A DNA stretch of 64,000 bases from Blasia pusilla. Taxonomy: Eukaryota. Location: the NCBI GenBank assembly GCA_050084515.1, contig CM114271.1, positions 17,422,001 through 17,486,000 on the forward strand. The letters run 5' to 3'. A program made the position numbers and the translations under genes. The notes beneath the pieces are model-generated. The model saw nothing but the letters and a program-made list of their open reading frames with translations. It searched no databases and had not been told where the DNA came from. Positions 4,904 to 62,420 of this stretch are shown one piece after another. Every line of letters begins with the position of its first letter. Positions within the stretch are counted from its first letter, which is position 1.

Positions 4904-5522
4904 TGTCATATCTTAGTAGTCGATAGGCCGAGATCTATCGTGGATAGGGCGTAGAAGCCAGCGGACTATCTTGAGTGTAACTTTGTCCCACGGTGTCGGA
5001 TGAGGTTGAGGATATGTCCATTGTGTCAGGAACGTTGTTTCTGACAACTTTCATGTTGAGGTCTTTTACAGCCGGGTGACTTGTTGACCAGGTCACCCGC
5101 CCCTGGCAACCTGTGCGCGCAAGTTACCAAGGGGAGTGCTTTTTTTACGGGAAGAGCCTTTTGGCTCCTCCCCAACCCTATATAAGAGAGGAAGATGGCT
5201 TTCCTAAGCCATCTTTCTCATGTTGGGCCGTTGGAGCACCTCCCTTGTATGTGTGTGAGATAGGACTAGGGTGCTAGCGTCCGGATTCCTTGATAGCACA
5301 GGGTGGACGAGGCTCGATATGCTGATATAGATTGAGGAGTGGAGTTTTAGGCCGGGTGTGTCGTTTTTACTACTCTTTATTTTTGTTGTGTGATCTCCAT
5401 GTATATGTATGAGTTGATTTTTGTACATGTGTGGATCGACCCGTGTGTGGGGAAGATCGGTATTGTGTGGTGTAGATATGACGAGCGATGTATGTTGTGT
5501 AGCGATATGTATGCGCATGACA
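4904..5522 (+). mobile_element. Solo LTR (619 bp) of the DNMT/PHD Ty3-gypsy lineage
   Basis: TGTCA...TGACA termini, 4-bp TSD ACCT (4900-4903 / 5523-5526) and a TATA-like CCTATATAAG near 5177. A highly similar inverted copy lies at 17330-17949, and the 3' end resembles the LTR end at 17054. Confidence 0.92.
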
Positions 5523-10369: not shown

Positions 10370-11060
10370 ACCTATTCGCCGGTGAACGAGTATGCAAAGC
10401 AACAACAAAAATAGCAGCAAGTAGCAGCAGAGGAGCTGAAACAGCAACGCATGAGCGGCAGCAAGGTAGAGAAGGAGCTGTTGAAGTAAACCCGATTGCG
10501 GCAGCAAGGTGGAGTGCAACCCCTCAACCCAAAATGGGGGAAGAGAAAAGTGGAGGTGGAGCAGGTCCGTGCTCCCACCTAATCCCACCAAGAAAAACAT
10601 AGGACAGCCTTATGCAAGATACGATACGATCGCGACAACAATGTGGAGCGGAGGAGCCGATGCACCAGCGACGAGAGCAGAGCAAGGTTGAGTGCATCAC
10701 CTAGGTAAGCAATAAGAGCAGCAGCAAGATGGAGTGGATCGGAGCAGCGCGTTGAAGCCAAAACGGGGGAAGAGAAAAGTAGAGGCGGAGGAGGTCCGCG
10801 CTGCCACCTACTCCCACCAAATGAGACCCAAATTACTCCCCCTCTCTGATCGAGCCCGCAAGAAAGACATTGATTGGGGCATGAATGTGGAGCGGAGGAG
10901 CTGAAGTAGCAACACAATCGCGGGAGCAAGGTAGGATGGAGGAGCTGAACTAGCAACGACAGCGGCAGCAGGGATCAGAGCGGACAAGCCAAAATGCGGG
11001 ATGAAAAAAATGGAGGTGCAGCAGCTCCTCGCTGCCACCTACTCCCACCAAACAAGACCC
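10370..11060. repeat. GC-rich degenerate tandem array, ~230-bp unit x3
   Basis: GGGGAAGAGAAAAGTrGAGGyGGAG..GGTCCG.GCT.CCACCTA.TCCCACCA-type block at ~10537, ~10766 and ~10998. Confidence 0.8.
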
Positions 11061-11538: not shown

Positions 11539-12375
11539 TGACAAACATTGATGAAATAGCAATGCGCGTGGAGAATAGGCTGCTTTGCGACATCATGAAT
11601 CTACCTTAGACACCAAGACATGCAGAATTACAACATGCTCCAACATCTTCGACGTATGTTACATGGTCTTAATTTACCTTTTCTCTACTACTTTTGCATG
11701 TGTTTTGTATAGAAATTATGGTACGTAATAATTATTTTGTTCACTTCACACTCAACACACTTCCTATTCCATCAAATCCAACGCATGTTTCCGACTTTAG
11801 AAAACTGCTACGTGTAGAGGTGCAAAGGAGAAATCGTCTTATTCCTGTAGAAAATATGGTGCAACAACAAGAAATACAAAATCGAGAGTTCATTCAAACA
11901 TCTCCAACATGAGTTGGTTCCGTAATACATATCTCTAATTTTTCCACTATTATGTACATTGAATTAATGCTTTTAATGAAGTTTTTTCATCTTTTTTTGT
12001 GATTGTATATGTTGTAGATTTCCTATTCCACGGAACCCTCTATTATGTACATGTATTCAATGTTTTTAATCAAGTCTTCTTCACCTTTTTTGCATGATTA
12101 TATATGTTCTAGACTTCCTATTCCATCAAATCCTACACATGTACGTGATTTTTGAAAGGTGTTGTGTGGGGAGGCACAAAAAAGAAAACAGGCTATTGGT
12201 GTAGAGAAATTGGTGGAACAAAGAGAAATACAAGCTCAAGAAATATCTCCAACGTAAGTTGCTTCCTTGATTTAATTCCTTTTATACTTTCTAATGGTGC
12301 TAGATTTAATCTATTAAGAAGTCTCATTCAACTTTTCTCCATGATTAAATATTCTCCTGACTTCCTATTCCATTA
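11539..12375 (+). pseudogene. Tandemly repeated small exons (LPIPSNPTHV...SPT), probably from the Helitron 5' coding region
   Basis: Units begin (A)C/TTTCCTATTCCA at ~11760, 12019, 12114 and 12361. Two translate LPIPSNPTHVxDF...EIQ...SPT and end at donor-like AC|GTAAGT (12253) or the mutated AC|ATGAGT (11909). Confidence 0.55.
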
Positions 12376-12691
12376 CTCGTGATGATATACCACCGTTGGC
12401 AGTGGCCAGTAGAGGGCAGCATTGCCTACATTGGTGAGTTTTCCGCCATCTCATGCTTTTTGTCAGGGAGGACCAGGCATGATATGGGATGAGCAGGTAG
12501 GTACACTCGTGGAGCCCAACACCGACGAGCGAGAGCGAGCTATGGGGTTCTCTACAGGTACGACGGCGGTGGCTATGATGGCAGAGCCATCCCGAAGAAA
12601 GGTATTGGGTCAGGCTATAGACCTGAATTGTCTTACTTGGGTGTTCACTCTTGGTTTGGCTAAGCACAGACGGTGCGAGAGGCATCTGTGA
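12376..12691 (+). pseudogene. C-terminal fragment of a DNMT3-like C5 cytosine methyltransferase within the retrotransposon
   Basis: EPNTDERERAMGFSTGTTAVAMMAEPSRRKVLGQAIDLN matches the C5-MTase motif IX-X pattern (E-R-x-x-G-F ... T ... R-x-x-x-L-G), as in DNMT3 [26 protein letters not shown]. Motifs I-VIII are absent because of the truncation. Confidence 0.75.
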
Positions 12692-13079: not shown

Positions 13080-15790
13080 TCGGATCGAGTTAGATAGTGA
13101 TACTCCTATCTTTTGACGACCCTACACGTATTTCGACATGGAGCGAGCCTTGATTCAGAGTAGGAGTCGAGACTTGGCTGACGCTGGACTGGTGGAGAGA
13201 TGGCTTGGAGAGTATGCATTTTCCATAGTTGTGCCGGTGAAGAAGGACATGCATGGCCAGTGGACCGATAGGCGGATATGTGGGGATTATCGTCCTATCA
13301 ATCGGCATACGAAAGCCAATCGCTATGATATGCCTACTCCCAAGGAGATCTTTGATGCGGTGGGGCATGCAAGGATCTTCAGTTGTTTGGATCTCCGTGC
13401 TGGCTATCATCAATTGCCCATCCGAGTGGAGGACATGGAGAAGACAACATTTTGGGGGATAGATCCTTTCGGGAAGGATTTTTTATATCAGTGGCGGTTC
13501 TTACCATTTGGGTGAAGAATGCCCCTGCGGGTTTTCAGCGAGTTATGGATAGGATTTTGGCTAGTTTGGATTATGCAAGATGTTACATCAATGACATGTC
13601 ATCTTCAATGCCATGGTTGAGGAGCATAAGAGCCATATGGAGGAGGTGTTTCAACGATTGCAGTTACATGGGCTAAAGTTATATCCAGGCAAGTGCAGGT
13701 TCTTCCATGACCAGATCGAGTACCTTTGACACACCATTTATCCAAGGGGCATTGGGGTTCAGCAGACAAAGGTGGAGGACATAGTACGCATTCCCCGCCC
13801 TACAGATGTGAGTCAATTTTGAGCTTTCATGGGATTGGCGAACTACTACCGACGGTACGTGAAGGGCTTTAGTGCGATTGCAAACCCACTGACTTTGCTG
13901 ACTAGGTTGAACCAGGAGTGGTTTTGGGGAGATGATCAAAAGCGAACATTTCATGAGCTCAAGGATAGGTTGATGTCCTCACCCATTTTGAGGAGACCTA
14001 TGCGTGGTTGTCCGTTCCAGTTACATACGGACTGGAGTATGTTGGAGTTAGGAGTGGTGCTCACTTAGAGAGATGATGAGGGGAAGGAGTTCGTAGTGGC
14101 GTATGTGAGCCGCTTAAACAACATTGCAAAGGCAAAGAACAATTCCTATGAGGGGGAGTGCTTAGCTGTAGTATGGGTAGTGGCCCATTTCAGATATTGT
14201 TTGTTCGAGAAGCCTTTCACGCTCATCATTGATCATCAGCCACTCAGATGGCTGATGGAGTATGACAAGCTTACAGGAAATCTTGCCATATGGTCACTCA
14301 TGTTGCAGGAGTACAATTTTCAGGCTGTCCATGGCCCGGGACATCTGAACCAGGATGCGGACGGGCTAAGCCATAACCCATGCACGAGCCAAAGCAATGC
14401 GACTGGAGCACGGTGGTATGGTGAGAGTGATGAGGAGATGGTGTCGGGCTGGCAAAAATGTGCCTATTTGTGTCTATTGGCTATGTTAGGTCAGCATGAG
14501 GCATCCATTCCATGAGGGAGGTTGGATGGTGAGTCCTCAGATCCAGATGCTAGTGAGGAGTCGACATGGACTAGAGATATCCACGATGATAAGATGGTCT
14601 TGGAGTACCTACACACTGGTGTCTTAGCGAGCACGGTGGATGCTAAAGAGCGAGATCGAGTCCTACAGCGAGCCAAGAGGTTCAAGTGAGAGGGGACGCA
14701 GGTGCTTCGAGTTTGGGAGGATGGACGAGTGCGAATGGTGCCGCATCCTTCGCAGCGAGCACGAGTTGTGAGACATGCTCACAAGAAGTTAGGGCATGTC
14801 GGAGTCAAGCGTACGTATAGCTTGATTCAGATTCAGTATTGGTGGCATGATATGTAGACTGATGTTCTAGTTTGTAGCTAGATGCATTGTATGTGATAGG
14901 GTGCGGGCATTGTTCAATGTCCGACACCACACTTGTATCCCTTATCCATCATGGGGTTAGGGTATCGTTGGAGTTTAGACTTGGCGGGGCCTTTACCATT
15001 GACGGGACGCCATAGTCGGTACATGTTGGTCATAGTGGAGCACTTCTCCAAGTGGACTGAGTTGGTAGCATTGCCGGATAGGTCGAGTGAGGGAGCGGCT
15101 TATGCATTTCTTGATAGAGTGCTTAGTCACTTTGGCGCATCAGCAGACGTATTGACGGACGAGGGTACCGAGTTTAAGGGTGACTTTCACACCTTGTGTG
15201 ATCAGGCACTGATAGATCATTGTACGACTTCTTGAGATCATCCAGAGGCAGATGGTTTGGCAGAGAGTGTTGTGCAGACGGTGAAGAGAGGATTGCGCAA
15301 GTATGGACTGCAGAGAGGAAACTTGGGAGATTGGGACCTACAGTTGCCGTGGTTGGCGATGGATTGCCGCTTCAGTCGGAAGGCATCCTTGGCATCATTT
15401 TCACCCTATTTCTTGTTCTATGGGAGAGAGCCAGAGCTACCGTTGTCGATTCAACGAGATGTGGTTGAGGTACTTGACCTCGACGATCCATACGTATGGA
15501 TGCGAGCATGTTCTCAGCGGGCTAAGCTCTTTGAGAGAGTCATGCCTATGGCGTTTGAGAACCAGGCTTTCACTCACCATCGCGATACTCTGAGGTACGC
15601 GACTATGCGTGGAGGAGGCTATTGACCAGGGATTCGGAGATTCCATCCTAGCGATTATGTCTACCTACAACAGACAGCGCCGACGACATTGGACGTGACG
15701 GCGCGACGTACTATTCTGTGAGTATGAGAGATTTTACCTTCAAGAGTCCTTGTTTTAGAGGGTCGTGATAGTACCGTTTGGAAAAATCAT
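13080..15790 (+). pseudogene. Ty3/gypsy pol (RT, RNase H, integrase), frameshifted and with stops
   Basis: RT: RICGDYRPIN, CLDLRAGYHQ, FLPFG-KNAPA, CYIND. RNase H: FQLHTDWS, SYEGECLAVVW, IDHQPLRWL. Integrase: H-x4-H...CIVC, WSLDLAGP, VLTDEGTEF, HPEADGLAE. Confidence 0.95.
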
Positions 15791-16015
15791 ATGCGTAACT
15801 GTGCGCCATGTCATCTTCTGAACATGGATGGGAGGATTGATCCGAGCTTGGTAGTTGTTCATGCAGGCTTGAGATGCATGTTGTGTGGGTCTGCCAGAGG
15901 CGCAACCACGATGCTAGTTTGTGATGAGTGTTCTCAAGGATGGCATATGTTGTGTTTGGCGCCGCCCCTTGACTTGGTTTCTCATGGACGTTGGCTTTGT
16001 CCCAGATGTACATAG
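15791..16015 (+). pseudogene. PHD finger at integrase C-terminus
   Basis: CMLC...MLVCDECSQGWHMLCLAPPL...GRWLCPRC is an intact C4-H-C3 PHD with the conserved W. Confidence 0.92.
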
Positions 16016-16191
16016 GTGTGATAGGTAGATACAAGATTACTCTTGATGTTATGGATTGCAGGAAGGTGACTAACGATGGGGCGACATAGTACCTGACCTC
16101 CTGATCTTAGCATCGAAAAGGTGCATAGCATTTAGACTTGTTTTGTAGGCTATATGGAGTTAGAGGGACGTAACCACCAACTAGGGGGACG

Positions 16192-16309
16192 ATTGGGATT
16201 GTCCAGTAGTTCATGTGTAGAGATGTTAGGATTCATAGCTAGATGGATCTTAGACATGTGTGTGCATGACAGCCGATGTATGTTGACAACGATGTATATT
16301 CGTACGACA
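16192..16309 (+). repeat. 118-bp extra copy of the LTR 3' end placed immediately upstream of the 3' LTR
   Basis: 16192-16309 versus 16937-17054: same length, 9 mismatches by eye, no indels. Preceded by AACCACCAACTAGGGGGA (16172-16189) and followed by AC and the LTR start TATCATGG (16312). Confidence 0.95.
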
Positions 16310-16311
16310 AC

Positions 16312-17054
16312 TATCATGGTAGATGAGGCGTAGGGTGAGATAGTATCGAGGCCTTAGAGGGGTCTTGTACTTCCCTATTTTGAGAGATCATATGTGACCT
16401 GCTCTTAGGAAGTGATCTACTAGTGTAGGTCACCCTTCCCTTTATGAGGAGTGGCAACCTTGGAGAGGTTGACCTTCCTAGCCATGTGTGGCTCCACTTG
16501 GACCTATAGGGTTATGAGTTAGTTGGTAGTTGGTCTCATGAGGGGACCACATGTTTTGTTGTTAGGGAGCTAGTATGGATGTACTACAAGTTGATAGTGA
16601 CGTACTAGGAGGGAGGTGACATGTGTGTACAGGTCACCCATAGAGATGCCCAGGTGGGTATACCTCGAATGAGTCTCATTTGGAGCTCATCTCCTTAGGA
16701 TTGCAGACCCTTGGTAGGATCCGTGATACAATACGACGTGTATGTATTGAGCTTGGATTCTCTCTTGAAGAGTGGGCTAGGAATGATCAATAAGGAGATC
16801 ACACATTTTGGGAATCCTTGTGTATACTTTCTCTTATTGTCACACGAGTGCGTATCAGAATCATGAGTATGGCTGTTGGATGAAGTACGGTCGATTGAAT
16901 ATTTCATTAGAGTTTACAGTTCGTATTCAACTTTATATTGGGATTGTCCAGTCGTTCATGTGTAGAAATATTAGGATTCATAGCTAGATGGATCTTAGAC
17001 ATGTGTGTGCATGACAACTGATGTATGTTGGCATCGATGTGTATTCGCACGACA
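16312..17054 (+). mobile_element. 3' LTR of the DNMT/PHD gypsy element
   Basis: TATCAT...ACGACA termini (decayed TGTCA...TGACA). The terminal ~35 nt resemble the solo-LTR end at 5486-5522. Confidence 0.85.
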
Positions 17055-20000
17055 TCGACTTCAAACACCAATTGGAGCTGAAGATGATAATCAAGTACTT
17101 CGATTTGGTCGACTTCCTCAAGAATATATGGTTGACATTTATGCCACTATCGAGATGCAGCGTTTATGTTTGATTGCGTGAATCAAAATGAGTTAAGAGT
17201 TGAATTATATCAAGGTGTAAAGGATGCCATACATCAACATGATAGTGATAGCACAAAATTTGGGAGGCGTATTGTATTAACCTCTTCTTTATTGGAGGTC
17301 CATGTCATATGCATCAACTATATCAAGACTATCGTGCGCATAAATATCGCTACACAACATACATCGCTGGTCTCATCTACACTACACAACACCGATCTTT
17401 CCCACACAAGTACAAAAATCAACTCATACATATACATGGAGATCACACAACAAAAATAAAGAGTAGTAAAAATGGCACACCCGGCCTAAGACTCCACTCC
17501 TCAATCTACATCGGCATATCGAGCCTCGTCCACCCTATGCTATCAAGGAATCCGGACGCTAGCACCCTAGTCCTATCTCACACACATACAAGGGAGGTGC
17601 TCCAACGGCCCAACATGAGAAAGATGGCTTAGGAAAGCCATCTTCCTCTCTTATACAGGGTTGGGAAGAGCCAAAAGGCTCTTCCCATAAAAATAGCCCT
17701 CCCCGTAAAAATAGCCATCCCCTTCGTAACCTGCGCGCACAGGTTACCAGGGGCGGGTGACTTGGTCAACAAGTCACCCAACTGTAAAAGACCTCAACAT
17801 GAAAGTTGTCAGAAACGACGTTCCTGACATAATGGACCTATCCTCAACCACATCCGACACTGTGGGACAAAGTTACACTCAAGATAGTCCGCTGGCTCCT
17901 ACGCCCTATCCACGATAGATCTCGGCCTATCGGCTACTCAGATGTGACAAGACGCAATGGCCATCGTGAGACACTTGGGAAACTCCGATTACTTTTTAAC
18001 CATGACATGCAACCCTAAGTGGGAGGAGATTACAACAACATTGTTACCTGGTCAAACTACGGCAGACCGACCGGATTTAGTTGTAAGAGTTTTTCAAAAG
18101 AAGAAGAGGGAGTTATTACAACTTATCATCAAGAAGCATATATTAGGCCGAGTTGTTGGATGCATTCATGTTGTGGAATTCCAAAAGAGAGGTCTTCCAC
18201 ATGCCCATATTTTGATAATTCTGGCTCATGGGGATAAACCACAAACTACTTATGATTATGGTACTATAATATCAGCTTTTTTTTATACATAAATATATCT
18301 TTGCGTGGTTGATCTTCTCTATTGCTTTTTTTTTCTAGATTAAAATATAAAAAATTTATATACTTACTTATTCTTTGCAATATCTCTTTTTTTAGGGTGG
18401 ATGATGGGAAGAAGGTCATAAAGCGTGAACACTCTCTCGAAAATCAATGGGTGGTGCCCTACAATCCTCTAGTGTGTACATTATTTGACTGTCACATTAA
18501 TTTGGAGATCACAAACAATATTTTGGCTGTTAAATATCTCTACAAATATGTACATAAGGGATCTGATGTTGTATCATTTAAGGAGTCCAAAGAAGGAAAT
18601 AATTCTACCAACATAGAGACAATTGATGAGACATCATTGTATCTTGATGCAAGGTAAGCATTTCCTGACTTCATTGTTTTATTTTATTTCCATGTCCTTC
18701 TACTCATTGATAGTTTCAACATTTCATGTATGTAACCATCATTTTCTCATCCCATATATAGATATATATTTTCTTCAGAGGCGTTTTGGAGACTTTTCAA
18801 ATTCAATCTTCATGTAGAACATCCGAGTATTATGAGATTGGTTGTTCATTTATCGGAGGCACACATAGTTTACTTCAACGATAATGATGCTCCAAAAAAT
18901 ATTCTGCAAAATAACAGAGAGACAACCCTGGCACAATGGTTTGAAACAAATTCGCTAGATCCCATTGCTTGAAAGTATTTGTATCTTGAATTTCCTTCCT
19001 ACTATCGTTGGAGTAATAAGAGATGGTTTTGCAGGGTACCAAAAAAAACTATTGCGATCTTCCTCTTGGTCGCTTATACCTTACCCATCTAGGTAAGAAG
19101 TTCTTGCAACCTCATCTTACTTTCATATGCTATTTCCTACCTTACTTAATATCTCAAATAATTCTATCCACACATTCAATAGAGGAATTATAACCTTTAA
19201 CCTATCTTGGACTTCCATGTAGGTGAAGGAGAACGCCATTGGTTGAGATTGCATCTTCATCATGTTCGAGGGGCAACTACATACGAATTTTTTAGAACAG
19301 TGGATGGAGTGTTGTACCCAACATTTAAGGACGTTGTCATTCAATTGGGACTTCTTGAGGATGATAGGGAAGCATTCTTTTGCTTAAAAGAAGCTAAAGA
19401 GATCCGTAAAGGCTCCTCACTTCGTGGACTCTTTGCCATCATTTTGGCTTATAACACACCTACTTGTCCTGCAATACTTTGGAGTCAATTTTTGGTTCAA
19501 CTCATTAAAGATCTTATATATGAATGACGTGAGGTAATTATTTTTCTTCTTTAATTTTAAGGTCTAAATGCTGATATTACCTTGGACTTATTACATGTTA
19601 TGCACATTCCATTGCAGAAAATTGGAATTGCTAATCTCCCCCCTGATGCTTCTATCATTAATCAGGCTTTATTGGAAGTGCATTATTATCTCCAAGATCA
19701 AGGAAAGTCCTTGTAAGATTTCCCAGACATGCCCCAAGCTAACTTTCAAATAATTCAATCACGCTCATATCTAGATGAAGAAAAGTTATTATATGATCAA
19801 GAATAACTACTTGAGCGCGTGGAATTATGAGAATCAAGTTTGAATGAAGGGCAACGTGCTATTTAGGATGCTATACATATTCAACTTCATGATATCTCTA
19901 CGGATGCTCCATCATGTGCCAAATGTTTTTTCATTGATGGCCCAGGAGGAAGAGGAAAGAAGTTCCTATATAATCTTCTTCTTGCAAGCGGTAGAAGAAG

Positions 20001-21298
20001 TGGAGGTATAGCTTTGGCTGTCGCATCATATGGGATAGCTGCCCTTTTATTAGATGGAGGACGCACTGCACATTCACGCTTCAAGATTCCTCTAACTCTT
20101 GATGAATCCTCTACTTCATCGTCATGCATTTGAGGCAGTGAATCGTACCTTACAAGATATTATGGGAGTTTTCTCTAATGACTTGAGGCATATACCATTT
20201 GGTGGAAACTCATAATTTTTGGTGGCAATTTTTGCCAAGTCCTATCCGTTGTACGTCATGGAGATTCCCCAAAAATTGTCCAAGCCACTTTAAAGAGATC
20301 AATTTTATGGCCTCATGTGAATGTCATGAAGTTAAGTACAAATATGAGAGTTCAAAGGTTGGAAGGTCATGAATGTGCTCACCAACAAGCTTTTGCTGAT
20401 TGGTTAGTGGAGGTGGGAGAGGATGATGTACCTTTGCGAAGTGACTTGGGAGATAATTTTATTCAATTGCCACATGATATGGTCTACCATAGTATTAAGA
20501 TAAGTGATCTTATTGATATTAGAATGGAAACGATCCTCAATCATTTCATGACATCAATTTTTTGGGAGATACAGCTATTTTGGCACCAAGAAATAGAGAT
20601 GTCGATGAGATAAATACAGAAGTCATGTCTCGATTCCACGGACAGGTAAAGATACAATACTATTCCGGTAAATATGTTTTGTGATTCTTATTAATGACTA
20701 TCTTCATTCCAATATCTAATATATGTATGTAAGTTATGTACAAGGATGTACTTACCTAAGTGTTGACTTCGTTCCAAATTAGAGGATGAGTCATATCTAT
20801 CCGACAAAATTCTTGAATACATGCTTACCTTACGGACTACCACCATATTCTTTGTCATTGAAAATAGGTGCACCGATCATGCTTCTACGAAACATGAATG
20901 GCTCGAGGGGACAAGCAAATGGTACGCGATTAGTCATTCGAGGATTTATGCAACATTTGATAGATGTTGAGATTATTACTGGAAAGAACATTGGAGATCT
21001 CGTTTTCATTCCGCGTATCCCATTGATCGCGTCTGACTCCCATTTACCTTTAGACCTACGTAGACGTCAGTCAATTCCCTATCCGTCGTCCTTTTGCCAT
21101 GACCATTAATAAATCACAAGGTCAAACCCTACATAAAGTTGGAATTTACTTGCCTACTCCTATTTTTTCTCATGGCACGTAGCATTGTTTAGAGTAGGAC
21201 ACATAAGTTCAATCCATGTTACACTTGGAAGTGAAGCACATTCAAGTAAAAAGGTGTATTGTACCCGCAATGTAGTTTACAAAGAAGTTCTAATTTAA
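17055..21298 (+). pseudogene. Helitron Rep-helicase (HUH endonuclease plus Pif1-like helicase), intron-containing, decayed
   Basis: Rep: YQD|AMAIVR...FLTMTCNPKW, VVEFQKRGLPHAHILI, KYLYKYVHKG. Helicase: FIDGPGGRGK, GGRTAHSRFKIPL, PFGG, LKIGAPIMLLRN...[32 protein letters not shown] introns at ~18655, 19093, 19534 and 20646. Confidence 0.95.
17330..17949 (-). mobile_element. Solo LTR inserted in the Helitron Rep coding sequence
   Basis: Inverted copy of 4904-5522 with 4-bp TSD AGAC (17326-17329 / 17950-17953). Removing it restores TAT CAA GAC GCA ATG GCC (YQDAMA). Confidence 0.95.
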
Positions 21299-29249: not shown

Positions 29250-29860
29250 CTAAATAAGAATTGAGCCATTCCCACCCTCAATGTGAGGGAATCTAGGTCT
29301 GTAGAATGCCGAGAGGACCTTGCTCTAACCTATGCTCGAAAGGCTCAACTATGGAAATATGAGCCTCTCCAAGCCTCCCTTTGGAGTATAGCCCTCTCAA
29401 GGCCCCCAAGGCTCCAAGAGCATTACATGTGCACATAAGTCATCTCAACTTGGTTGGGAGGCTCTTTCCTAATCGAGAAGCTCCAAGAAAGTCCCAAGAA
29501 ACCCCAAAGGATGACATGTGCATACATGTACCAAAAGAAAGGCCGGTAGGTCACTCTTGGCCTCTCCACATCTAACTACACACATAGCCCGCCTATCAAG
29601 ACCTACTACATACTCTTACTAGACTGCATTTACCATGATAGTAGTTGTGTGCAAACACATCGTTGTCACGTACACGTAAACATAACACATATCAAAAACA
29701 CATCACGACCATATGTACACCCGGCCATCACACAAAGAGGCTACACAACCCTTCCCCCCCTTGCTAGTGGTTAGGTCCTTCAACGAGTCCAACCCCATAT
29801 AGTCAACTATTTTGTCTAAAGTAACATGCACTTTTTCGGTACTAAGATCAAGGGGATCTC
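29250..29860 (-). mobile_element. 3' remnant of a second element of the DNMT/PHD gypsy lineage (3' UTR, purine tract, extra LTR-end copy, partial LTR)
   Basis: Reverse complement is similar to 16100-16330: TGATCTTAG..CGAAAA.GTGCAT, TTTAGAC, CTATATGG, AACCACTAGCAAGGGGGGGAAGGG, TGACAACGATGT, then the AC|TATCATGGTA junction at 29631-29642. Left boundary is approximate. Confidence 0.75.
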
Positions 29861-38542: not shown

Positions 38543-41500
38543 ATGGCAAATCTAAATGCGTTTGAGGACTTTTTCCGTCGAGCGGATTTGGACAAGGATG
38601 GCAGGATTAGCGGGGCCGAGGCAGTCGGATTTTTCCAGGGAGCCAACTTACCACAAGTTACGTTGGCAAAGGTGTGGAACATCCTCCTTAATTTTTTAAG
38701 CATTAGAAACAATATGCGTCATGTAAAACTCACGTCTCATAAGTCAGCATCGGAGGCGCGCACTTGACTGACCTGCACTCACTAAGCGACGACACAAGTG
38801 AATGGAGGGAGTGGTAGGGCGTGAGGATGCATGGGAGATATAGCGCGAACCATATAAGGTGGATTAAGGATAATACTACGAATTTCTATGGGACTGCCTG
38901 ACTTTCTTGTAAGGAGTTGTGGTAGAAGTGCGAGAAACACCTAGTCGTATTCGCAGGTTGACGTGCTCGTGCTGAACTGTGGGATTTTTTATGGCTCGCA
39001 GATATGGCAGATTGCGGATCAAGGACAAAATGGATTTCTTTCCAAGCCCCAGTTTTTCAATGCTTTGAAGCTTGTGACAGTCGCTCAGTCGGGAAGAGAC
39101 CTCACACCTGAAATTGTACGAACAGCCTTGACTGGACCCGTTGCTGCACAGATCCCCCCACCTCGAATAGTGACTCCCGGGCCTCCACCTTCCAGCTATG
39201 GGGCGCCATCAGTGTCTCCTCAGGTACAAACTGGTTTCTCGAATCAATTCGCATCTTCTACAGCAGCTCCTCAAAGTCGATGGTCTTCTCAACCCTCTGC
39301 TTTGCCTGGGAATGCACCGATAGCGCCTCCTGTGATTCCCAGACCTGGTTCAGCATCGGGACAGCGACCTTCGACGGGGTTTGGCCAAGATGCGTGGCCT
39401 TCTGTTAAGTCGACAGGTCCTTCCCCTTCAGTCCATGGCCCATCGCAAGCTCCTGCAAGTGCTGCTGCATCGGTGCCAGGTTTTCAGGTTGGTCAAAGCT
39501 TTGCAGCTTCCTCACAGGGGAAGATTAAGGAGGACGCATTCGGTGGGCTAGGACTCGAAACAGGTAAATTCTGGGCTGAGGATGGCTATGGTGGCGACGG
39601 AGCGTTCCGAGCAGAACCTGTGGCAACCAAGGCACTGGCACCAATTGGTATTCCCTCAAGAAATGGAAGTAAGGAATCCCAAACAGCTTTTGCAACCACC
39701 CGTCCGTCTGTGACACCTCTACCAGCGGCCTCTGGACCGGGATTTACTGCTCCTTCCGCAAGCTTAGGTATGGGTGGGCCTTGGCCCCGAATGACCGAGT
39801 CTGATGCACAACGTTATACACGAGTGTTTGCCGAGGTGGACACGGACAGAGATGGCAAGATCACAGGCGAGCAGGCACGGGATCTTTTCTTGAGTTGGGG
39901 ACTTCCCAGAGGTAACTCTCCATGTTATCCCAGACAACATGTCGCTTGGTGAAGCTCGGAAGGGGCAATTCCGATGAGAATTTAATGTGTTTGGTCTGTA
40001 GATGCAGTGTCTGTGATATGCTTACTGACCACTGAGCCCCTGATGGTTGAGTAAGAGCCGATGAGCTTTACATTTAACTGGCTTAAGCCAAAGTCATGGT
40101 GGGTATCTTGACTCCTCTGCACAACACATCTTCATTAGGCTCATTCGAGTTACACCAGTCAAGTCTTCATAGTACTGATAAAAACACTGTTTCCTCAGAG
40201 GTTTTGAAGCAGGTGTGGGACCTATCAGATCAAGACGGTGACAGTATGTTGTCTCTTAGAGAGTTTTGTACTGCTCTCTACCTGATGGAGCGGTTTCGGG
40301 AGGGGAGACCTTTACCGCCTGTACTCCCTACAGGCTTCCACTTTGACGACCGTCAATCAGAAATATGGCCCTCTGCAGTTGCCTCACAAACCGAGCAAGG
40401 ACGTATGCCTGTTTCACAGCATTCTGCAGGGTACAATGTTCCTAGCTGGCAACAGAATCCAGGTACAAAGATGCGACCCTGCTTTGGATAGCATCAGTAT
40501 TAGACTATGAACGTCAGATGTAACCTCTTGCTGTGCTGGAGTACTTCAACCTTTGTGTGTTAAATTCAAGGAGTAAAACATGACATGAATGGACTCATAG
40601 TATCACAACAAAATTTCTGGGTGATTACCTGATATGATCAATGCCTCATTTCAAGAATTGTTAGTGGTGTTCTAAGCTGACTGTAGAAACATTTTTTGAT
40701 GGGATTTAACATCTGATGGATCTCTTGAACCCAGGAGCACTTCATCCCCCTGGTTCAGGATCCATTGGTCTTCCACGGCAGTATATGTCAACTGGATCAA
40801 TTCCATCACAAGTTCCAAGTGCACGAGGCATTGATCTAGATGCAGGTCAGCCTGTAGTATACAAATCTAAGGCTCCTGTATTGGATATGCATCTCGTGAA
40901 TCAGCTCAACAGGGATGAACAGAATACTCTGAAGGCAAAGCATAAAGATGCTGAAGAAGCAGATAAGAAGGTAAGTTCTTGATGTCTACTTGAGCAAAGT
41001 AAAAGTGGATTGAATTTATGGTGACATAGTTTATGTGTAGTTCAAAGAGTTGTGTCCAGTCCTCAGAAAAAGATATGATAAGACCTCCTCCATCTAGTGC
41101 CCTGTCTTTAACCTATTATACTGAGAAGGAACAAAGATAATAATCTGTCCTCCGGAGCTCACTCAAGAAAATGTGTGAGTTTTACACACTGGTTCTTTAA
41201 ACACACAAAATTCAATCTAAATGATGCCACTACTGGGAATGATGTTGAACCATTAATCTGATTCTTCACTACTTAGCCGTGGACTTCCCTCACATGTGTT
41301 GAGTCTGTTGGAATTTGTTTTCTTTTCATGTGGAGGGAATCCTTGGGTAAGATCTTTGGTTAGAGCAGAACATCCCAAGGATGCATCTTTCTCTTAAGAA
41401 GGCTAGGGAAAACATTGTGAAAAAAATTGTCGCGGTTGACACTTCAGACACATGTACAAGAAACATTTATCTGATCGATGGTTCAGAGCTGCCACTGAAA

Positions 41501-44500
41501 AACTGGGTTGTGATCATGGAATTTTGCAGAAGGCTTTAGGTTCCTGCTTAGCAGATTTCGCCACAGTTTCACTCATTTGGGGTACTTTAGTTATTCTAAT
41601 GGATAAATCTTCGGAGCGTATCAGTACATATCTAGGAAGCCATCAATAGGTCCCAAATTTGGCTTAATTCTGCATTCTGAGAAAGTAATTGATGCAAACT
41701 TACTTGTGTGGACAAGTTCCAGGGTCAATAGGCCTGCCATTCTGGTTAGTAATTCTCAGACTTGAATTGTACTGAACAAGTATAATTTCGGAGTATGCTC
41801 AAAGCTCGTTTCTATTTCAGAGCATTGTATGGTAGGGATTCCTTAAGTTGAGGTGTTGATCCTGGCCTCCAGCTTAGCTTAATTAGAGAGCATGCTTGCA
41901 AATTATTCAGAATTTGACTTGGATTTAGGTGGATAGTCATGAACATACCTGAAACCATGATTTGCTACTTCTTCACAACTTCTTTCACTCAATTTGACAG
42001 GACTTCTTGAACTTTAGGAATTTAGCGTATGATCTCCGTTGAAGTTCTTTTCTGCTGAATTTCCCGCTCCTCAATGCATTCACTTCCCTCCATTAGGGCC
42101 TTACATGGCCAAACATGTAGATTTCTCTTCCTGCTGAACACCTTGATGAATTCAGCTCATGTCCAACAATCATTTGAGATCACAATTCGGTGATTTGGTG
42201 CAAGGCATTTTGCTCAGATTCAGATCAACTTGTGAAATTTCCAGGTTGCTGCGTAGTGTTCTTACATTGTGTGATTATACACTAGTTGGTTTGGGCTTCG
42301 TGACCAAAGAAGTGATCAATGATCTATGTGACGTGGCAGGCCTATCAGTTAGACAAGGAGATCATGGATTACCGAGAGAAAACTGAGTACTATCGCTCCA
42401 AGTTGCAGGAGATAGTAAGCATCGCTTTCATTGGTTGTTTATTCTCTACGTTTGGATTAGTTGAAGATTTTTCGGCTCAGCTTTTCTCTGCCTTGGATCC
42501 GAGCATATTCATATATGGTGTTCGGAAGTGATCCATGAGTCGTAGATTAGTTTTCTGTCCAACTCAAAACCATTATTTTTTGAACATGATGCCAGATACT
42601 GTTCAAGAGCAGATGTGACAACAAGCTTTCTGAAATCACAGAGCGAGCAGCAGCTGATAAACGAGAGGTATCATTGAATTTTCCTCACTTCAAATTTCTC
42701 TTCTATTACTTGGACATGGTCCACCACAGAAAGCTTCCAGTTTGTTTTAAGAAAGTGTTTTGGATGAAGGCTGTAGAAGCATTCAATAGCCAGATTTCAC
42801 TTTGGTACAAGGTCATAAGCAATCTCGGGGAAGTTATTGTGTGTGTGTTTGTTTGTTCAATATTGTAGTGAAATAGAGAGAAGGGATAACATGCCTGAAC
42901 ATTCAACATTGTTGCCAGAATATAAAGAGGTCACTTGTTTAGACATGGGAAAATTTGCATTCTGTGTTTCTGGGACTCTTATGTCAGGTTTGTATCTTGC
43001 AATGAGTCTTGGATGTTTTTTTTATCTGACCTATGAAAAATTCCTGCATCTCGAATAATAGATGGAATCATTGGCCAAAAAGTATGACGAGAGATTTAAG
43101 GCAGCTGGAGAAGTGAACTCACGACTGATGGCCGAAGAAGCAGTGTTCCGTGATATTCAGGTGGGTTCATTTATGGCATTCAAATAAATTAAACATGTTA
43201 GAATCAGTGGTATTATATGGGGTGGATGGATATGTTGACGCAGTGAGGGTTATTCAATTTTTGTCACTGATTGCAATAATTACATATCTTTCTTTATGGG
43301 TACTTCTGACATTACCTGCAGATGTTGGGACTTATGAATATTCTAAGTTGTCAGTATTCAATGTTAAATCTTCAGTTCCTCTATCCTAAGGATGTCAATT
43401 ATTGTCAGATGTAAGGCTCTTTCTGCAGAACCAATTGCCATAGCTTTTGTAACTGGATGATTTTGCCGTGCATAGTTGCTGCTGAACCAATGCATCTGGA
43501 AGCTTATATTTTCCACTCTTAAATGAAAGGAGATTGCTTACTTCGGGAATGGAACTACTCTTGTGCCATTGCAGGAGAAAAAGGTTGAACTCTACAACGC
43601 CATTGCAAAAATGGAACAAGGTGGTGATGCCAATGGGCTGCTTCAGGTATATGGTTCTCAGGGCTGTTAAATAATTATTGTGCAGGTGGAATTCTTTTGT
43701 ACCAACTGTTGTGAATCTGATTTTGATATGCAAGCAATTGGATTGCTAGATTCACATCATTATTGATATCAAGTTGTAAATGGTTGTTGTGATTATTCCA
43801 ACAGAGTAAAGCAGATCGTATATCTTCTGATTTGGTTGAATTGAGAAAAGCATTCAATGAAAGGGGGAGACGCTTGGGCTTGCATGTGAAAGCAATCAAT
43901 CCATCGGAGCAACAATTTGGTCTGTATTCATCTTGAACTGGATATGATGAGTTCCATGGTCAGAGAAGTTGTAGCAGCTAATTGTGGAATGGTTTAAGTG
44001 AAAACATGTGGATATTTCTGCATTTAGCGTATTTGCCATTATTGGTTTTTGGCTTATTATCAGGGTATCTGCACTGGTAGAATTTAGGATTTTAGCCTAA
44101 CATGCCCTGATGGTTTGGTGAACTGTAAGCAGGTTGGCAACCGGGTCTTCAGGAGAATGCTGCAGAGTGGGATGAAGATTGGGATAAATTCGATGACGAA
44201 GGTCTTTTTCATCTCTGCACTTGAATCTCGTATGACTGTATATGGACCTCTTCACAAATTATGGAGATTTAATTCTAAGATCTGTTGTTCTTGTGTGGTC
44301 AAGCACCTGCAGCCCAGAGGACCTGTGGCGATTGCTTCATATTGATGAAAATCAAGGAATGAGACTGAAAATATAATGAAATGTGCAGACATATCAGAGA
44401 CTTTCCTGAAATTCGATTTGATGATGTGGAAAGAGATTGGGCCCTGTAGGGCACAAACATTTTACATCTTATAAACATCATTTTTCCACTTGAAAAGCTT

Positions 44501-46392
44501 GTACAGGGTTATCATGGATGAGGGTACGTCATTCTAATGGATTCCTTTTTTGTGTGCCTTGTGTCAGGATTTGTATCTGTTCAAGATTTTATGGGTGATG
44601 GAACTGGAGGTCCTTTTACAGTGGCCACACCTTTGACAGCTGCAGGCTTGAATTCGAGCAGTCAACTTGAGAATGAGGCTGACTTTGGTTTTTCTCCAAG
44701 ATCAGAACATAAGGTAGCAGTTCAGTCTGAGGATGTATCTGCTCCTGAGCCTGTACCATTTGAACACACCTCTCCTCGAGCTGAAAGTGAGACGTCTGGA
44801 AGAAGTGGAGTTGAGAGTCCAACCACATCTAGCTCTCAAGCTGTCGAAAAAAGCAGCTTTGACAAATCAGGCACTGCAAACAAGGCCAGCCAAAGGTTAG
44901 TGAACTTACAAAGGAACATGGAAGATATCACTATGTATCACACTTGTTCTGACATGCCGATCAGCCATACCCACCTAATGAAGTTTCTGACTGATTTGTT
45001 ATGTAGATATGCAAACTTGGCTGATTCACAAGACCTTGGTGCGGGAGATGTTTTTAATGGTCCAACATCTTACAGCTCAACAACTAACAGGTACAGGTTT
45101 GAAACTATATAGATGGTCAAGTATGAATTTGCAAAAGGAGGAGCTTCTTCAAAATTAATGTTCTGACTCTGGATCTGCTGGGTCAGCTTTGAACAAGGTC
45201 CACCATCATATGATTCCAACGATGCATTTGGTGAAGGAGGTGTGTCATGGTCAGCAGCATTCAGCCATGATGAAGAAGTGGATTCTGGGATTAGAGCATC
45301 GTGGGGCTTACAAAGCAACCCCTCCAGTACTCAGGTAGTGTTGCAGATTGGATTGGGCATGCATGCTACTGACCTCTGTATCCCAACTTGGATTCTTGAG
45401 ATAGTCTGAAGCTTGTGTTTTAAATGATATGCATTATATGAATACACTAGCTTGACATTCAGCTCTCATCAAGGATCAATTGGTCAAGATTTATTTTGGA
45501 ATACAGCTTTGGTCGGGTGCTCTGGGGAATTTGACATCTTATTCAATCAATACCTGCCCACTTTGAACTTGTATTACACCTTGCTCTGGGGAATTTCACA
45601 TCTTATGCAATCAATACCTGCCCACTTCGAACTTGTATTACACCTTTTTTTTGAATAGTTCTGTAGTCATGAGAAGTAGAAAGTCAGGCTGGTCAATTTT
45701 AAGTTGGAGATCTTATTGAGTTCTGAAGGTTTTGACTCCCTATCACTGCCCAAACTGTCGTTGTGCAGGCATCTTTGGATGTGACAGGAAATCGTACATC
45801 TCGCTTTGGTAGAACAGGATTGTCCTCTTCTCATGGATTTGGAGATTCCTTGGATTTTGGGTCCTTGGAAGTTTCAAGTCCTGGTAGAGTTCTTGATGGA
45901 CTATCAAGCCCAGGTCAAAGTCATCGTGGCAATGGTGCTTTCCGTGAATCAGAAGACTATGATGCATTCGGATCACTTGGTTCTAAAGACTTCGACAGGT
46001 CGCCAAGCTTCTTTGGAGGTAGCAATACAATGAGAGGGAACTCTGGTTTTGATAGTCCAAGATCTGGTTTTGGTAGCCCACGTGGTAAGGCTGGATCTGG
46101 GAGTGACCGACACTTTGCAAGATTTGACACCTTTAGTCCTCAAAATAATCCAGCGATGCCAGGAGGAACATTTGGTGAGGAGCAACAAGAGAACAATCAT
46201 GCAGGAGCTGGCAATAACCGCGGCTTTGCCAGATTTGACTCAATCAGCAGTGTAAAGTCCGAAGCTGACCGTGGTAGGGGTGGACTGTTCAGCTCTTTTG
46301 ATGAAGGAGATAATCTGTTTGCAGGTACTGGACCTTTTGGGGCAGCAGGCCATGAGAAGAAGCCAACTGATTACGGCTGGAGTGCATTCTAG
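38543..46392 (+). CDS. EH1: EH-domain (Eps15-homology) protein, AtEH/Pan1-like TPLATE-complex subunit, 14 exons
   Basis: Exons 38543-38671, 39002-39911, 40199-40462, 40735-40970, 42340-42414, 42596-42667, 43062-43160, 43575-43646, 43805-43919, 44133-44201, 44568-44895, 45007-45090, 45187-45334 and 45769-46392. Two EH domains (ADLDKDGRISGAEAV; VDTDRDGKITGEQAR...VWDLSDQDGDSMLSLREFC), a coiled coil (KSRCDN), GWQPGLQENAAEWDEDWDKFDDEG and C-terminal WSAF*. Confidence 0.95.
45518..45646. repeat. 64-bp tandem duplication in intron 13 of the EH gene
   Basis: TGCTCTGGGGAATTT.ACATCTTAT.CAATCAATACCTGCCCACTT.GAACTTGTATTACACCT x2, 3 mismatches. Confidence 0.92.
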
Positions 46393-61503: not shown

Positions 61504-62420
61504 AGGTATATCTCCTTGCCTCGCTCTAGCTCTCTCCATGGTAACCTATGCTCGTAAGTCATCTCTTATGCTTTTGAGGTTATGTAGGGGATCAAGGACC
61601 ATTTCACAAAATGGAAAGTCAACTCTACTCCTAATGGTAACTTACTCAAAATAATAATTTTCTCTATATAGCTCCAAATAAGCTGAAAAGAAGGGAAAAT
61701 ATGCTCTCTCAGATTATCCATAATATTAGTAGGTCATCCTCGACCTCTTGAGGCTGTCCTCCAATATTCTCTAAGGCACTATATTATAAACTCGTTAGTC
61801 CATCCCAAAAGATGTGACAATGGTCGTGTGCATACACATCGCTACACAACATACATCGTTGTCACCGAATACACACACAAACATACAAGATACCATACTA
61901 ACTCATGACATCTAAAAATCGAGACGTTCAAGTACCAAAATATCTCCAATCATTCCTCTAGTTGGTGGTTAGGTACCTCTAACTCTAGATAGCCATCTAT
62001 CCCTAACTATCATGACTCACATCTCTAGATCACTAAGAGCAAAAATATCATGTGCTTATGTAATCCCATCATTAGTCGCCTTCTTATCACCCATATCAAA
62101 GACATAAGTCTAGATCTTTGACTACCTATGGTAAAGATCGGCGCTCCGTCAAAGGTAAAGGTCCTAAAAATCCAAACTCTACGTATAACCTAAATCCATG
62201 ATTGACAACACATGCAACTGTGGAGTCAGAGTATTAAAGTATGTCCGGACCCGATCACATACCATATACCTAGCAACAAATTTTTCCCTTTAGTTTTCAT
62301 GCATTGCCATTGATATTATATATGGAGCAAGTTGTACGTCCGCAACAATAGAGCCCACCTTGCAAGCTTCCCTATAAGCTTGCTAGACTCCATCAACCAA
62401 TTAAGTGGTTGATGGAGATC
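61504..62420 (-). mobile_element. Third, internally deleted element of the DNMT/PHD gypsy lineage, LTR apparently interrupted by the copia
   Basis: Minus strand: RNase H piece HQPLNWLMESSKLIGKLARWALLL (62320-62420), then integrase piece CDRVRTYFN...LSIMDLGY...SLDF.GPLPLT (62140-62280; cf. CDRVRALFN...LSIMGLGYRWSLDLAGPLPLT in the first element). Then AACCACCAACTAGAGGA (61954-61970), an LTR-end copy (61822-61950), AT spacer and LTR start TGTCACATC at 61819. Confidence 0.82.

Follow-up and report, generated by a model that had tools for sequence, protein, structure and literature searches.

In long terminal repeat (LTR) retrotransposition as known from textbooks, the ends of the integrated element are tied to the polypurine tract (PPT) and the primer-binding site (PBS). 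Split direct repeats are assigned to DIRS elements, according to the pertinent parts of a curation guide (PMC8969392) and the introduction of a study on Penelope-like elements. For the algal element KnitGypsy-Dnmt3 (de Mendoza et al. 2018), the legend of Fig. 4c in that paper describes the repeats of a DIRS retrotransposon together with domains typical of Gypsy (PMC5890265). The stretch analyzed here, 64,000 nucleotides from Blasia pusilla (assembly GCA_050084515.1, contig CM114271.1, positions 17,422,001 to 17,486,000 of the forward strand; “the window,” with its first letter as position 1), contains the 3′ end of a decayed plant gypsy-type (Ty3/gypsy) retrotransposon with end repeats of the form A...B-A-B. 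Together with related loci, this copy leads with high confidence to the architecture A - PBS - internal - PPT - B - NN - A - B, in which A and B are the two segments of a repeat and NN is a spacer of usually 2 nt. A publication on an algal relative thus already reports this layout, in the one legend just cited (PMC5890265), although the first-pass annotation of the window, made from the sequence alone, had known of no description for Ty3/gypsy elements.

The 3′ end of the window copy is composed of these features:

16148..16191, plus strand: conserved 3′ untranslated block ending in the PPT (AGGGGGA at 16183-16189), visible in the read depth; the same block stands before B in related loci.
16192..16309, plus strand: B1 (the B′ of the first-pass annotation), first part of the reverse-transcription LTR, a copy of 16937-17054.
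16310..16311, plus strand: spacer AC of 2 nt, separating the abutted integrase ends (ACGACA / AC / TATCAT), read from the sequence.
16312..16936, plus strand: A2, with the promoter and the R part of the repeat, starting with TATCATGG; contigs diverge just before 16314.
16937..17054, plus strand: B2, the right integration terminus (...ACGACA); contigs of sequencing run X6 diverge behind 17054.

Downstream of the stop codon, the block with AACCACCAACT (16172-16182) is followed by AGGGGGA (16183-16189), CG, B1, AC, and a repeat of 743 bp at 16312-17054. B1 and B2 (16192-16309 and 16937-17054) agree over 118 nt with 92.4% identity and no gap, as found by a repeat search and by BLAST, and an ungapped match of this length and quality is far beyond chance. 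Two diverged relatives and two solo repeats in the window were compared with this copy:

29626..29773, minus strand: relative r2, with block/PPT, B1, AC, and the start of A, in the same order as in the window copy.
61804..61971, minus strand: relative r3, with block/PPT, B1, T, and the start of A; a copia LTR interrupts A at 61509.
4904..5522, plus strand: solo A-B repeat of a related family, TGTCAT...ATGACA, with the 4-bp duplication ACCT/ACCT.
17330..17949, minus strand: second solo A-B repeat, TGTCAC...ACGATA, with the 4-bp duplication GTCT/GTCT.

In r2, the block with the purine run (29773-29749) was followed by B (29748-29643), AC, and TATCATGG from 29640; in r3, the block (61971-61950) was followed by B (61949-61821), a single T as spacer, and TGTCAC from 61819. 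The B segments of r2 and r3 comprise about 105 to 130 nt, end with ...CACAACT or ...CGACCA, and are separated by 1 to 2 nt from TATCAT or TGTCAC. The order of PPT, B, NN, and repeat, noticed in the first-pass annotation, is real and recurs in the window copy, in r2 and r3, and in the related loci described below. A second B copy of r2 and r3 was looked for in the window and not found, so that the statement that B is a copy of the LTR's own end could not be checked for these two relatives. The copia element in the A segment of r3 covers 56594-61509, with LTRs at 56594-56911 and 61191-61509 that are about 92% identical and with open reading frames (ORFs) for an integrase and a reverse transcriptase (RT) on the plus strand.

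The two solo repeats are 89% alike over 637 nt, their target duplications are perfect in both cases (2/2), and the B end of r3 matches the ends of both of them (28/29 nt and 32/35 nt). This indicates that the real integration termini are the A start and the B end, which had been claimed before and which the 4-bp duplications at the solo repeats and at the related loci bear out. Directly adjoining the second solo repeat, plus-strand ORFs at 17948-21106 have the look of a Helitron-type helicase/replicase.

Of about 12.4 million raw genomic reads of run X10, 4,933 were placed on 15800-17250, together with contigs from three further runs. The best share of sampled window words in any read run was 0.22 (X1), and X7, X8, and X14 contained next to none. 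The depth in the bin 16143-16191 was 754+787, compared to 57 to 234 per strand in the neighboring bins, which is a 3- to 13-fold difference. Many reads fitted only to 16148-16196 and then entered one common sequence, which is that of r3 after the purine run. This pile-up on the block, continuing as r3, indicates that the PPT block is conserved across families and that the r3 family is the most abundant one in the reads. Unlike flanks began just before 16314 in contigs from organism A (X1; 16 contigs, agreement 0.47) and organism B (X6; 38 contigs, agreement 0.41), and in X6 also behind 17054 (26 contigs, agreement 0.40); these are the same termini as those of the solo repeats. No joint running directly from the PPT to A occurred in the 15 read joints listed, beyond which there were 40 more. 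Joints between the two B copies (skips of about 747, back-steps of about 715 to 744) reflected reads fitting either copy and were not used.

Related loci were collected by a pattern scan of metagenome contigs, which yielded 597 stretches, 496 of them confirmed; the best 80 were kept as L001 to L080 with up to 10 kb on each side. In all eight 5′ ends (L001, L010, L017, L026, L028, L031, L060, and L058, which is identical to L061), A stands alone with unrelated DNA upstream, and a BLAST search for further 5′ ends added only one truncated end, in L002. The full copies L001 and L026 begin with A only (TGTCATGACC...GACATTTTCA), continue at once into internal sequence, and finish with a G-run, B, GC, A, and B. 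A complete B-NN-A-B was present in 34 of the 80 loci, representing about 23 distinct insertions, with six of these full-form junctions (L001, L012, L015, L023, L026, L031) assigned by eye; in L032, B was followed by A until the end of the contig. Apart from these and from the short-form loci described below, 9 loci possessed less than 500 bp after the PHD finger, and the others were interrupted or belonged to families outside the B library, such as L014 and L065, which showed a junction-like B-NN-TGTCA by eye. The integrated copies were not bounded by two identical LTRs, and their 3′ end was either B-NN-A-B or B alone. Since all eight 5′ ends carry A alone, the element is a split direct repeat of the type A-internal-PPT-B-NN-A-B and not, as had been assumed, a pair of complete A-B LTRs with an extra B. 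The likeness to the B-A-B split repeats of PAT, TOC1, and Ngaro, which the first-pass annotation had pointed out, turned out to be exact in the form A1-internal-B1-A2-B2.

This layout is constant across families that are 55 to 70% identical in the PHD region. B1 and B2 are alike within a copy, and B differs between families. The A1/A2 and B1/B2 identities were 92.3% and 93.8% in L001, 89.7% and 92.2% in L026, and 85.5% and 94.6% in L031. Divergence is thus similar for both pairs in these three loci, as expected if both pairs had been identical at insertion; this was the comparison of B′/B with repeat/repeat divergence that had been proposed earlier. The window alone, showing only a 3′ end, would also be compatible with B1 as a passive relic, either a partial tandem LTR duplication or an old LTR-LTR junction, in an element that is canonical in being bounded by A-B on either side, its PPT being displaced. 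Such an origin is highly improbable in view of the eight of eight 5′ ends with A but without B, of a layout that holds across diverged families, of B1 and B2 that resemble each other within a copy but differ between families, and of a PPT located at B in all cases and at A in none. Another candidate, a true LTR of the form B-NN-A integrated via its own ends, was rejected because no copy had B at the 5′ side.

Two observations on these loci stand apart. The full-form groups L034/L035, L039, L063; L038, L046, L057; and L059, L068 are 10 to 15% apart with similar 3′ flanks, and may go back to one old insertion shared by related hosts or to insertions within some other repeat, which would mean fewer independent insertions. 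In L004, an insertion of about 820 bp in A (1738-2557) recurs at about 30 places in L003 to L072, with 65 to 80% identity and on both strands; this insertion is a short repeat abundant in the metagenome host.

The B segments end with ...CAYGAYA and the A segments start with TRTCA, so that inverted ends of the TGTNR type (TGTCA...TGACA) lie 2 nt apart. TGTNR is usual for Gypsy termini, as stated in the part of PMC2836005 that deals with them. Perfect 4-bp duplications at the A start and the B end were found in four of six loci (AAGG in L001, ACTA in L010, TACA in L017, AGCC in L060); L026 agreed in 3 of 4 positions (AACA/AATA), and L028 showed no match. The spacer was a purine-pyrimidine pair in 25 of the 26 junctions that fitted the search pattern (AC 14, AT 4, GT 4, GC 3, and TT 1), with 3 further junctions outside the pattern. 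This census leaves out L001, L012, L015, L023, L026, and L031; read by eye, the spacer is GC in L001, L012, L015, and L026 and AC in L031. A purine-pyrimidine pair is of the same kind on both strands, so that each 3′ CA would precede the same kind of dinucleotide, as in the ends of retroviral complementary DNA (cDNA). The spacer is constant within subclades (GC, AT, and AC groups), which is expected if it is copied through RNA.

A G-run was located directly before B in all readable copies after the coding region and before A in 0 loci, for instance AGGGGGG/TGGTTTGG in one clade and GGGGGGCGA/GTTGTGG in another. The PPT is consequently not displaced, as the first-pass annotation had it, but abuts B directly in every readable copy. 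On the other side of the element, the sequence right after the 5′ A is complementary to positions of about 150 to 180 of A, with a TATA box from position 138 (L010, L017). Exact complements comprised 16 nt in L001, 13 nt in L028, 12 nt in L060, and 9 nt in L010, lengths reached in 0, 0, 1, and 6 of 500 shuffles, respectively. These sequences differ between clades and nevertheless stay complementary, which indicates that the pairing covaries. In L017, the relevant arm in A was apparently deleted. Self-priming elements such as Tf1 have the same arrangement, with a PBS that can pair with the beginning of the transcript. The PBS expected behind the 5′ repeat is present insofar as a PBS-like site, significant in 4 of 8 cases, abuts the end of A, but the repeat that it defines is B-NN-A and not the integrated unit. 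From the sequence, minus-strand synthesis would start at the end of A, and the reverse-transcription LTR would be B-NN-A. The integrase ends lie about 90 to 135 bp inside this LTR; relative to the expected cDNA, the integrated copy is circularly permuted. Moreover, at the joint between the end of A2 and the start of B2, the PBS-side end of A exactly meets the PPT-side start of B, such as TTTTCA + GTTGTGG in L026 and L031. A short palindrome just past the TATA box in A was observed at 5179-5240 and in L001 at 10488-10545, in different families. Its right arm is the segment complementary to the site behind A, so that the 5′ end of the RNA could form a local hairpin or a primer duplex.

Integrated copies of a second form, A-internal-PPT-B without any direct repeat, are common besides the full form. 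At about 26 loci (about 20 distinct), unrelated DNA came after PPT-B, compared to 34 raw counts (about 23 distinct) of the full form. PPT-B-NN-LTR, whose universality the first-pass annotation had proposed to test, was complete in 34 of 80 loci; this short form, about equally common, had not been foreseen. Short forms with a 5′ A had perfect duplications at the A start and the B end in L010, L017, and L060, and the flanks of L028 did not match. Short and full forms are interspersed on the tree of one clade. The short form may result from the use of two inner sites of a linear or a one-LTR′ circular cDNA (LTR′ being B-NN-A) or from B x B recombination after insertion; solo A-B repeats may be the small fragment of a doubly cut circle or the product of A x A recombination. 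The promoter part of A is present downstream of the RNA start in the full form alone, which is therefore the only form able to regenerate itself. A full form explained as a solo A-B repeat beside a short form was rejected, since the spacer is always 2 bp and the duplication of L001 encloses the whole unit.

In IS circles, abutted ends with a spacer of 2 to 3 bp are the reactive junction. The mobile unit could be the short form, a transposon-like unit with inverted TGTCA ends whose integrase moves or amplifies it as DNA, in the manner of Ginger or IS3/IS30, with B-NN-A-B as a by-product, a tandem junction of abutted ends. Common short copies with perfect 4-bp duplications (L010, L017, L060) would agree with this, as would the TGTNR termini in combination with a 4-bp duplication, which are those described for Ginger1 in the respective part of PMC2836005. 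The explanation is nevertheless improbable: the elements have kept not only gag, protease, RT, and RNase H but also a PPT exactly at B and a PBS-like site exactly at A, all of them dispensable for movement at the DNA level; the spacer is inherited within clades and not taken from each flank; and in L001 the duplication encloses the entire A...B-GC-A-B unit.

The model that agrees best with the copies, to which we give about an even chance, is that the ends of the cDNA are linked to form a circle or concatemer, which the DDE integrase opens at an internal junction. The RNA would start inside A just past the TATA box, and its 5′ end would pair with the site directly after A for self-priming of the Tf1 type. 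Canonical reverse transcription would then produce a cDNA of the form LTR′-internal-LTR′. Its ends, the A end and the B start, would be joined to a 2-LTR′ circle or a head-to-tail concatemer, and the integrase would open one internal junction, the abutted TGTCA ends within LTR′, and insert the DNA with a 4-bp stagger, which would yield the full form. A doubly cut circle would give a short form plus a solo A-B repeat, and cleavage at the single site of a one-LTR′ circle would give a short form. That integrases of foamy virus and HIV-1 are able to cut palindromic 2-LTR junctions is stated in the passages considered of PMC1905944, PMC1180852, and PMC4372172. The nonstandard route via a joined circular cDNA that the first-pass annotation had suggested is thus still the best model, with the joining itself being a step that we infer. 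Its impression of a circle junction was right in that the joint exists, but the joint of the ligated type is the A-end/B-start of the 3′ copy, and B-NN-A would be the integrase's own site copied through RNA.

Alternatively, the same split repeats may arise by ends that are united through reverse transcription and not through ligation, with the integrase still acting at the abutted TGTCA ends. This could happen in a DIRS/PAT-like manner, by bridging of the single-stranded cDNA with the B-NN-A of a second template, or by an end-to-end template switch that finishes the plus strand. The layout A-coding-B-A-B is typical of the DIRS order in the sections concerned of PMC5890265 and PMC8969392. The A-end/B-start joint is precise and not ragged in the compared copies, which fits a templated joint at least as well as end joining, and the lack of a copy extended on the 5′ side is an asymmetry more easily obtained by a directional polymerase step. 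On the other hand, an RNA template with the A end next to the B start needs a putative read-through from A2 into B2, and the standard scheme leaves the sequence past the landing site of the first strand transfer uncopied. No tyrosine recombinase was found in the ORFs and proteins scanned, and target duplications are present, whereas DIRS elements lack them according to the curation guide (PMC8969392, in the part consulted). Union of the ends by reverse transcription is unlikely on balance but needs to be taken seriously.

Several observations weigh against joining of the cDNA ends with internal cleavage, or against the material from which this model was derived. No circle, concatemer, or free cDNA was observed, and every predicted joint is also present in genomic copies, so that short reads cannot tell extrachromosomal forms apart. 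A 2-LTR′ circle has two equivalent junctions and should also generate a 5′-extended form, A-B-NN-A-PBS-internal-PPT-B, but none of the 8 5′ ends was preceded by B-NN and none of the 35 A-linked B copies was followed by NN-A; this absence favors a directional step or rapid loss of the 5′-extended form. Significant complementarity behind A was missing in four of the eight 5′ ends (L017, L026, L031, L058). The short form is about as common as the full form yet cannot regenerate the promoter region, and it is not older: the median terminal branch was 0.065 for short (n=11) and 0.067 for full forms (n=8; Mann-Whitney p=1.0), in a tree that left out loci sharing a flank and is too weak to settle the origin of the short form. 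A 5′ repeat of the window copy was searched for in the window by BLAST and not found, so that all statements on the 5′ side rest on relatives that are 55 to 70% identical in the PHD region. Several loci are one insertion sampled repeatedly, with identical flanks, and raw counts therefore overstate independence, which is why merged counts are also given. Finally, all copies examined are old and decayed, with terminal branches of 0.03 to 0.24.

A wider generalization of the joined-end model, plausible but somewhat doubtful, is that in the whole green-alga/bryophyte clade the integration ends are uncoupled from the reverse-transcription ends, the cDNA is circularized or concatenated, and the integrase makes an obligatory cut at an encoded, internal, palindromic TGACA-RY-TGTCA junction. 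This would correspond to the “circle junction” pathway that was put forward for retroviruses at one time and then rejected. Such elements would be living intermediates among three groups, namely LTR retrotransposons, DIRS-like elements, and integrase-type DNA transposons.

Upstream of the repeats, the window contains a decayed pol region in the gypsy order, with RVT_1 (weak) followed by RT_RNaseH and rve, as scored by Pfam on single ORFs:

12413..12688, plus strand: remnant of a DNA methyltransferase (DNMT)-like domain of the polyprotein, with the motif ERERAMGF; an ORF with no Pfam match.
13117..13673, plus strand: RT, frameshifted; Pfam RVT_1 E=8.2e-5, 22.8 bits, under the curated cut-off of 29.6.
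13823..14512, plus strand: RNase H; Pfam RT_RNaseH E=1.3e-19 and RT_RNaseH_2 E=1.4e-9.
14900..15622, plus strand: core and C-terminal part of the DDE integrase; Pfam rve E=5.3e-11 for 14900-15232.
15728..16012, plus strand: C-terminal PHD finger of the integrase; Pfam PHD E=1.6e-10.

The reading frames of this copy are broken; an in-frame stop at 15233-15235 splits the integrase, both ORFs of which are in one frame. The PHD finger at 15728..16012 is 62 to 72% identical to Marchantia and metagenome proteins, and the ERERAMGF motif of 12413-12688 also occurs in the Marchantia protein P0014 and in L017 (6670-7164). At the expected place of gag and the 5′ part, tandem repeats of about 230 bp and about 354 bp (68 to 82% identity) are located at 10426-11060 and 11759-12266. 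The window as a whole resembles a large, repeat-rich plant genome with copia, LINE-like, and helitron-like debris; long plus-strand ORFs at 38945-46389 resemble exons of host genes, one of them EH-domain-like, by eye only.

Judged by its predicted domains, the clade belongs to the Ty3/gypsy elements of green plants, with gag, protease, a DNMT-like domain, RT, RNase H, DDE integrase, and PHD. A search with the PHD ORF gave 25 proteins with E<=1e-5 among 86 candidates; those with a species name came from Marchantia polymorpha, at 63 to 70% identity. The gypsy order is evident in P0019 (RVT_1 3.7e-30, RT_RNaseH 1.1e-35, Integrase_H2C2 2.1e-14, rve 1e-14, and PHD). With the protease-RT region of P0014, 145 homologues with E<=0.001 were obtained among 4,125 candidates, many of which list PF00145 together with RT, RNase H, integrase, and PHD; the named ones originate from Marchantia, Klebsormidium nitens (P0114), Haematococcus, Chlamydomonas eustigma, Monoraphidium, and Sphagnum. 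A cytosine-methyltransferase-like domain lies between protease and RT at 12413-12688 of the window, 5627-6589 of L001, and 6670-7164 of L017. Motifs of the type DLFGGISTG, WPCQ, LDNVP, and ERERAMGF were read in P0014, P0016, and L001, and the stretch 5627-6094 of L001 gave a weak match to Pfam DNA_methylase (E=3.9e-4, 20.4 bits, under the cut-off of 22). A sequence search of the PDB with P0014 returned PHD-finger matches only and none for the DNMT-like part. No Phage_integrase match indicating a tyrosine recombinase was present in the 29 ORFs and proteins scanned, which do contain rve; the copies are decayed, and an ORF may have been lost.

In these elements, the integrated ends are set apart from PPT and PBS by about 100 bp on one side and by the whole A segment on the other, despite a classical DDE integrase and target duplications. 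Should the joined-end model be true, a retroelement with an integrase would require a DNA intermediate that is circular or concatemeric, and a split-direct-repeat architecture would be no signature of tyrosine recombinases. LTR finders that expect two identical LTRs will misannotate or miss such elements and their short forms in bryophyte and algal genomes. A literature description of the architecture for an element with a DDE integrase was found only in PMC5890265, in a search that had subscription journals, Repbase reports, and supplements outside its reach. This sole earlier mention found is one legend sentence; the mechanism is directly testable in Marchantia or Klebsormidium.

Compared to the DIRS order (PAT, Ngaro, TOC1), the topology A1-internal-B1-A2-B2 is identical, as far as described in the passages used from PMC8969392 and PMC5890265. 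The DIRS order differs in its tyrosine recombinase and lack of target duplications, as given in the relevant part of PMC8969392; the elements studied here possess a DDE integrase and 4-bp duplications. With canonical Ty3/gypsy elements, especially the self-priming Tf1/sushi group, they share RT, RNase H, an integrase with H2C2, TGTNR termini, and a PPT before and a PBS after the reverse-transcription LTR, but their genomic copies are not of the form LTR-internal-LTR. The cleavage of retroviral 2-LTR circles (foamy virus, HIV-1 in vitro) is similar in that a DDE integrase cuts an internal, palindromic junction of abutted ends (PMC1180852, PMC1905944, and PMC4372172, in the parts concerned). There, however, the junction results from ligation of LTR ends and belongs to a side or salvage route, whereas here it is encoded in LTR′ and would be an obligatory site. 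Ginger has a gypsy-like integrase and TGTNR ends, Ginger1 also a 4-bp duplication, and some Ginger1 transposases carry a PHD; Ginger1 targets CCGG or CCGT, in contrast to the varied duplications found here (AAGG, ACTA, TACA, AGCC, ACCT, GTCT) (PMC2836005, in the respective sections). RT, gag, PPT, and PBS are all missing in Ginger and in IS3/IS30.

KnitGypsy-Dnmt3 is closest, with a Gypsy-type Pol that includes a cytosine-methyltransferase domain; its combination of DIRS-like repeats and Gypsy domains, given in the legend and related passages of PMC5890265, was also found here, and the suggestion of the first-pass annotation to inspect algal DNMT-gypsy elements proved apt. The K. nitens protein P0114 (PF00145, RT, RNase H, integrase) matches P0014 with E=1.1e-44 and 43% identity over 67% of the query region. 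The elements analyzed here differ in residing in a genome of the land-plant type, with Marchantia proteins as the closest named relatives, and in an integrase that ends in a PHD; “PHD” occurs 0 times in the main text of PMC5890265, and P0114 lists none. Target duplications, the positions of PPT or PBS, a short form, and a mechanism are not mentioned in the passages on KnitGypsy-Dnmt3 consulted in that paper. New here are members in a genome of the land-plant type with a PHD, the 4-bp duplications, the positions of PPT and PBS relative to A and B, the purine-pyrimidine rule of the spacer, and the short form, together with the conclusion that the integration ends and the reverse-transcription ends are uncoupled.

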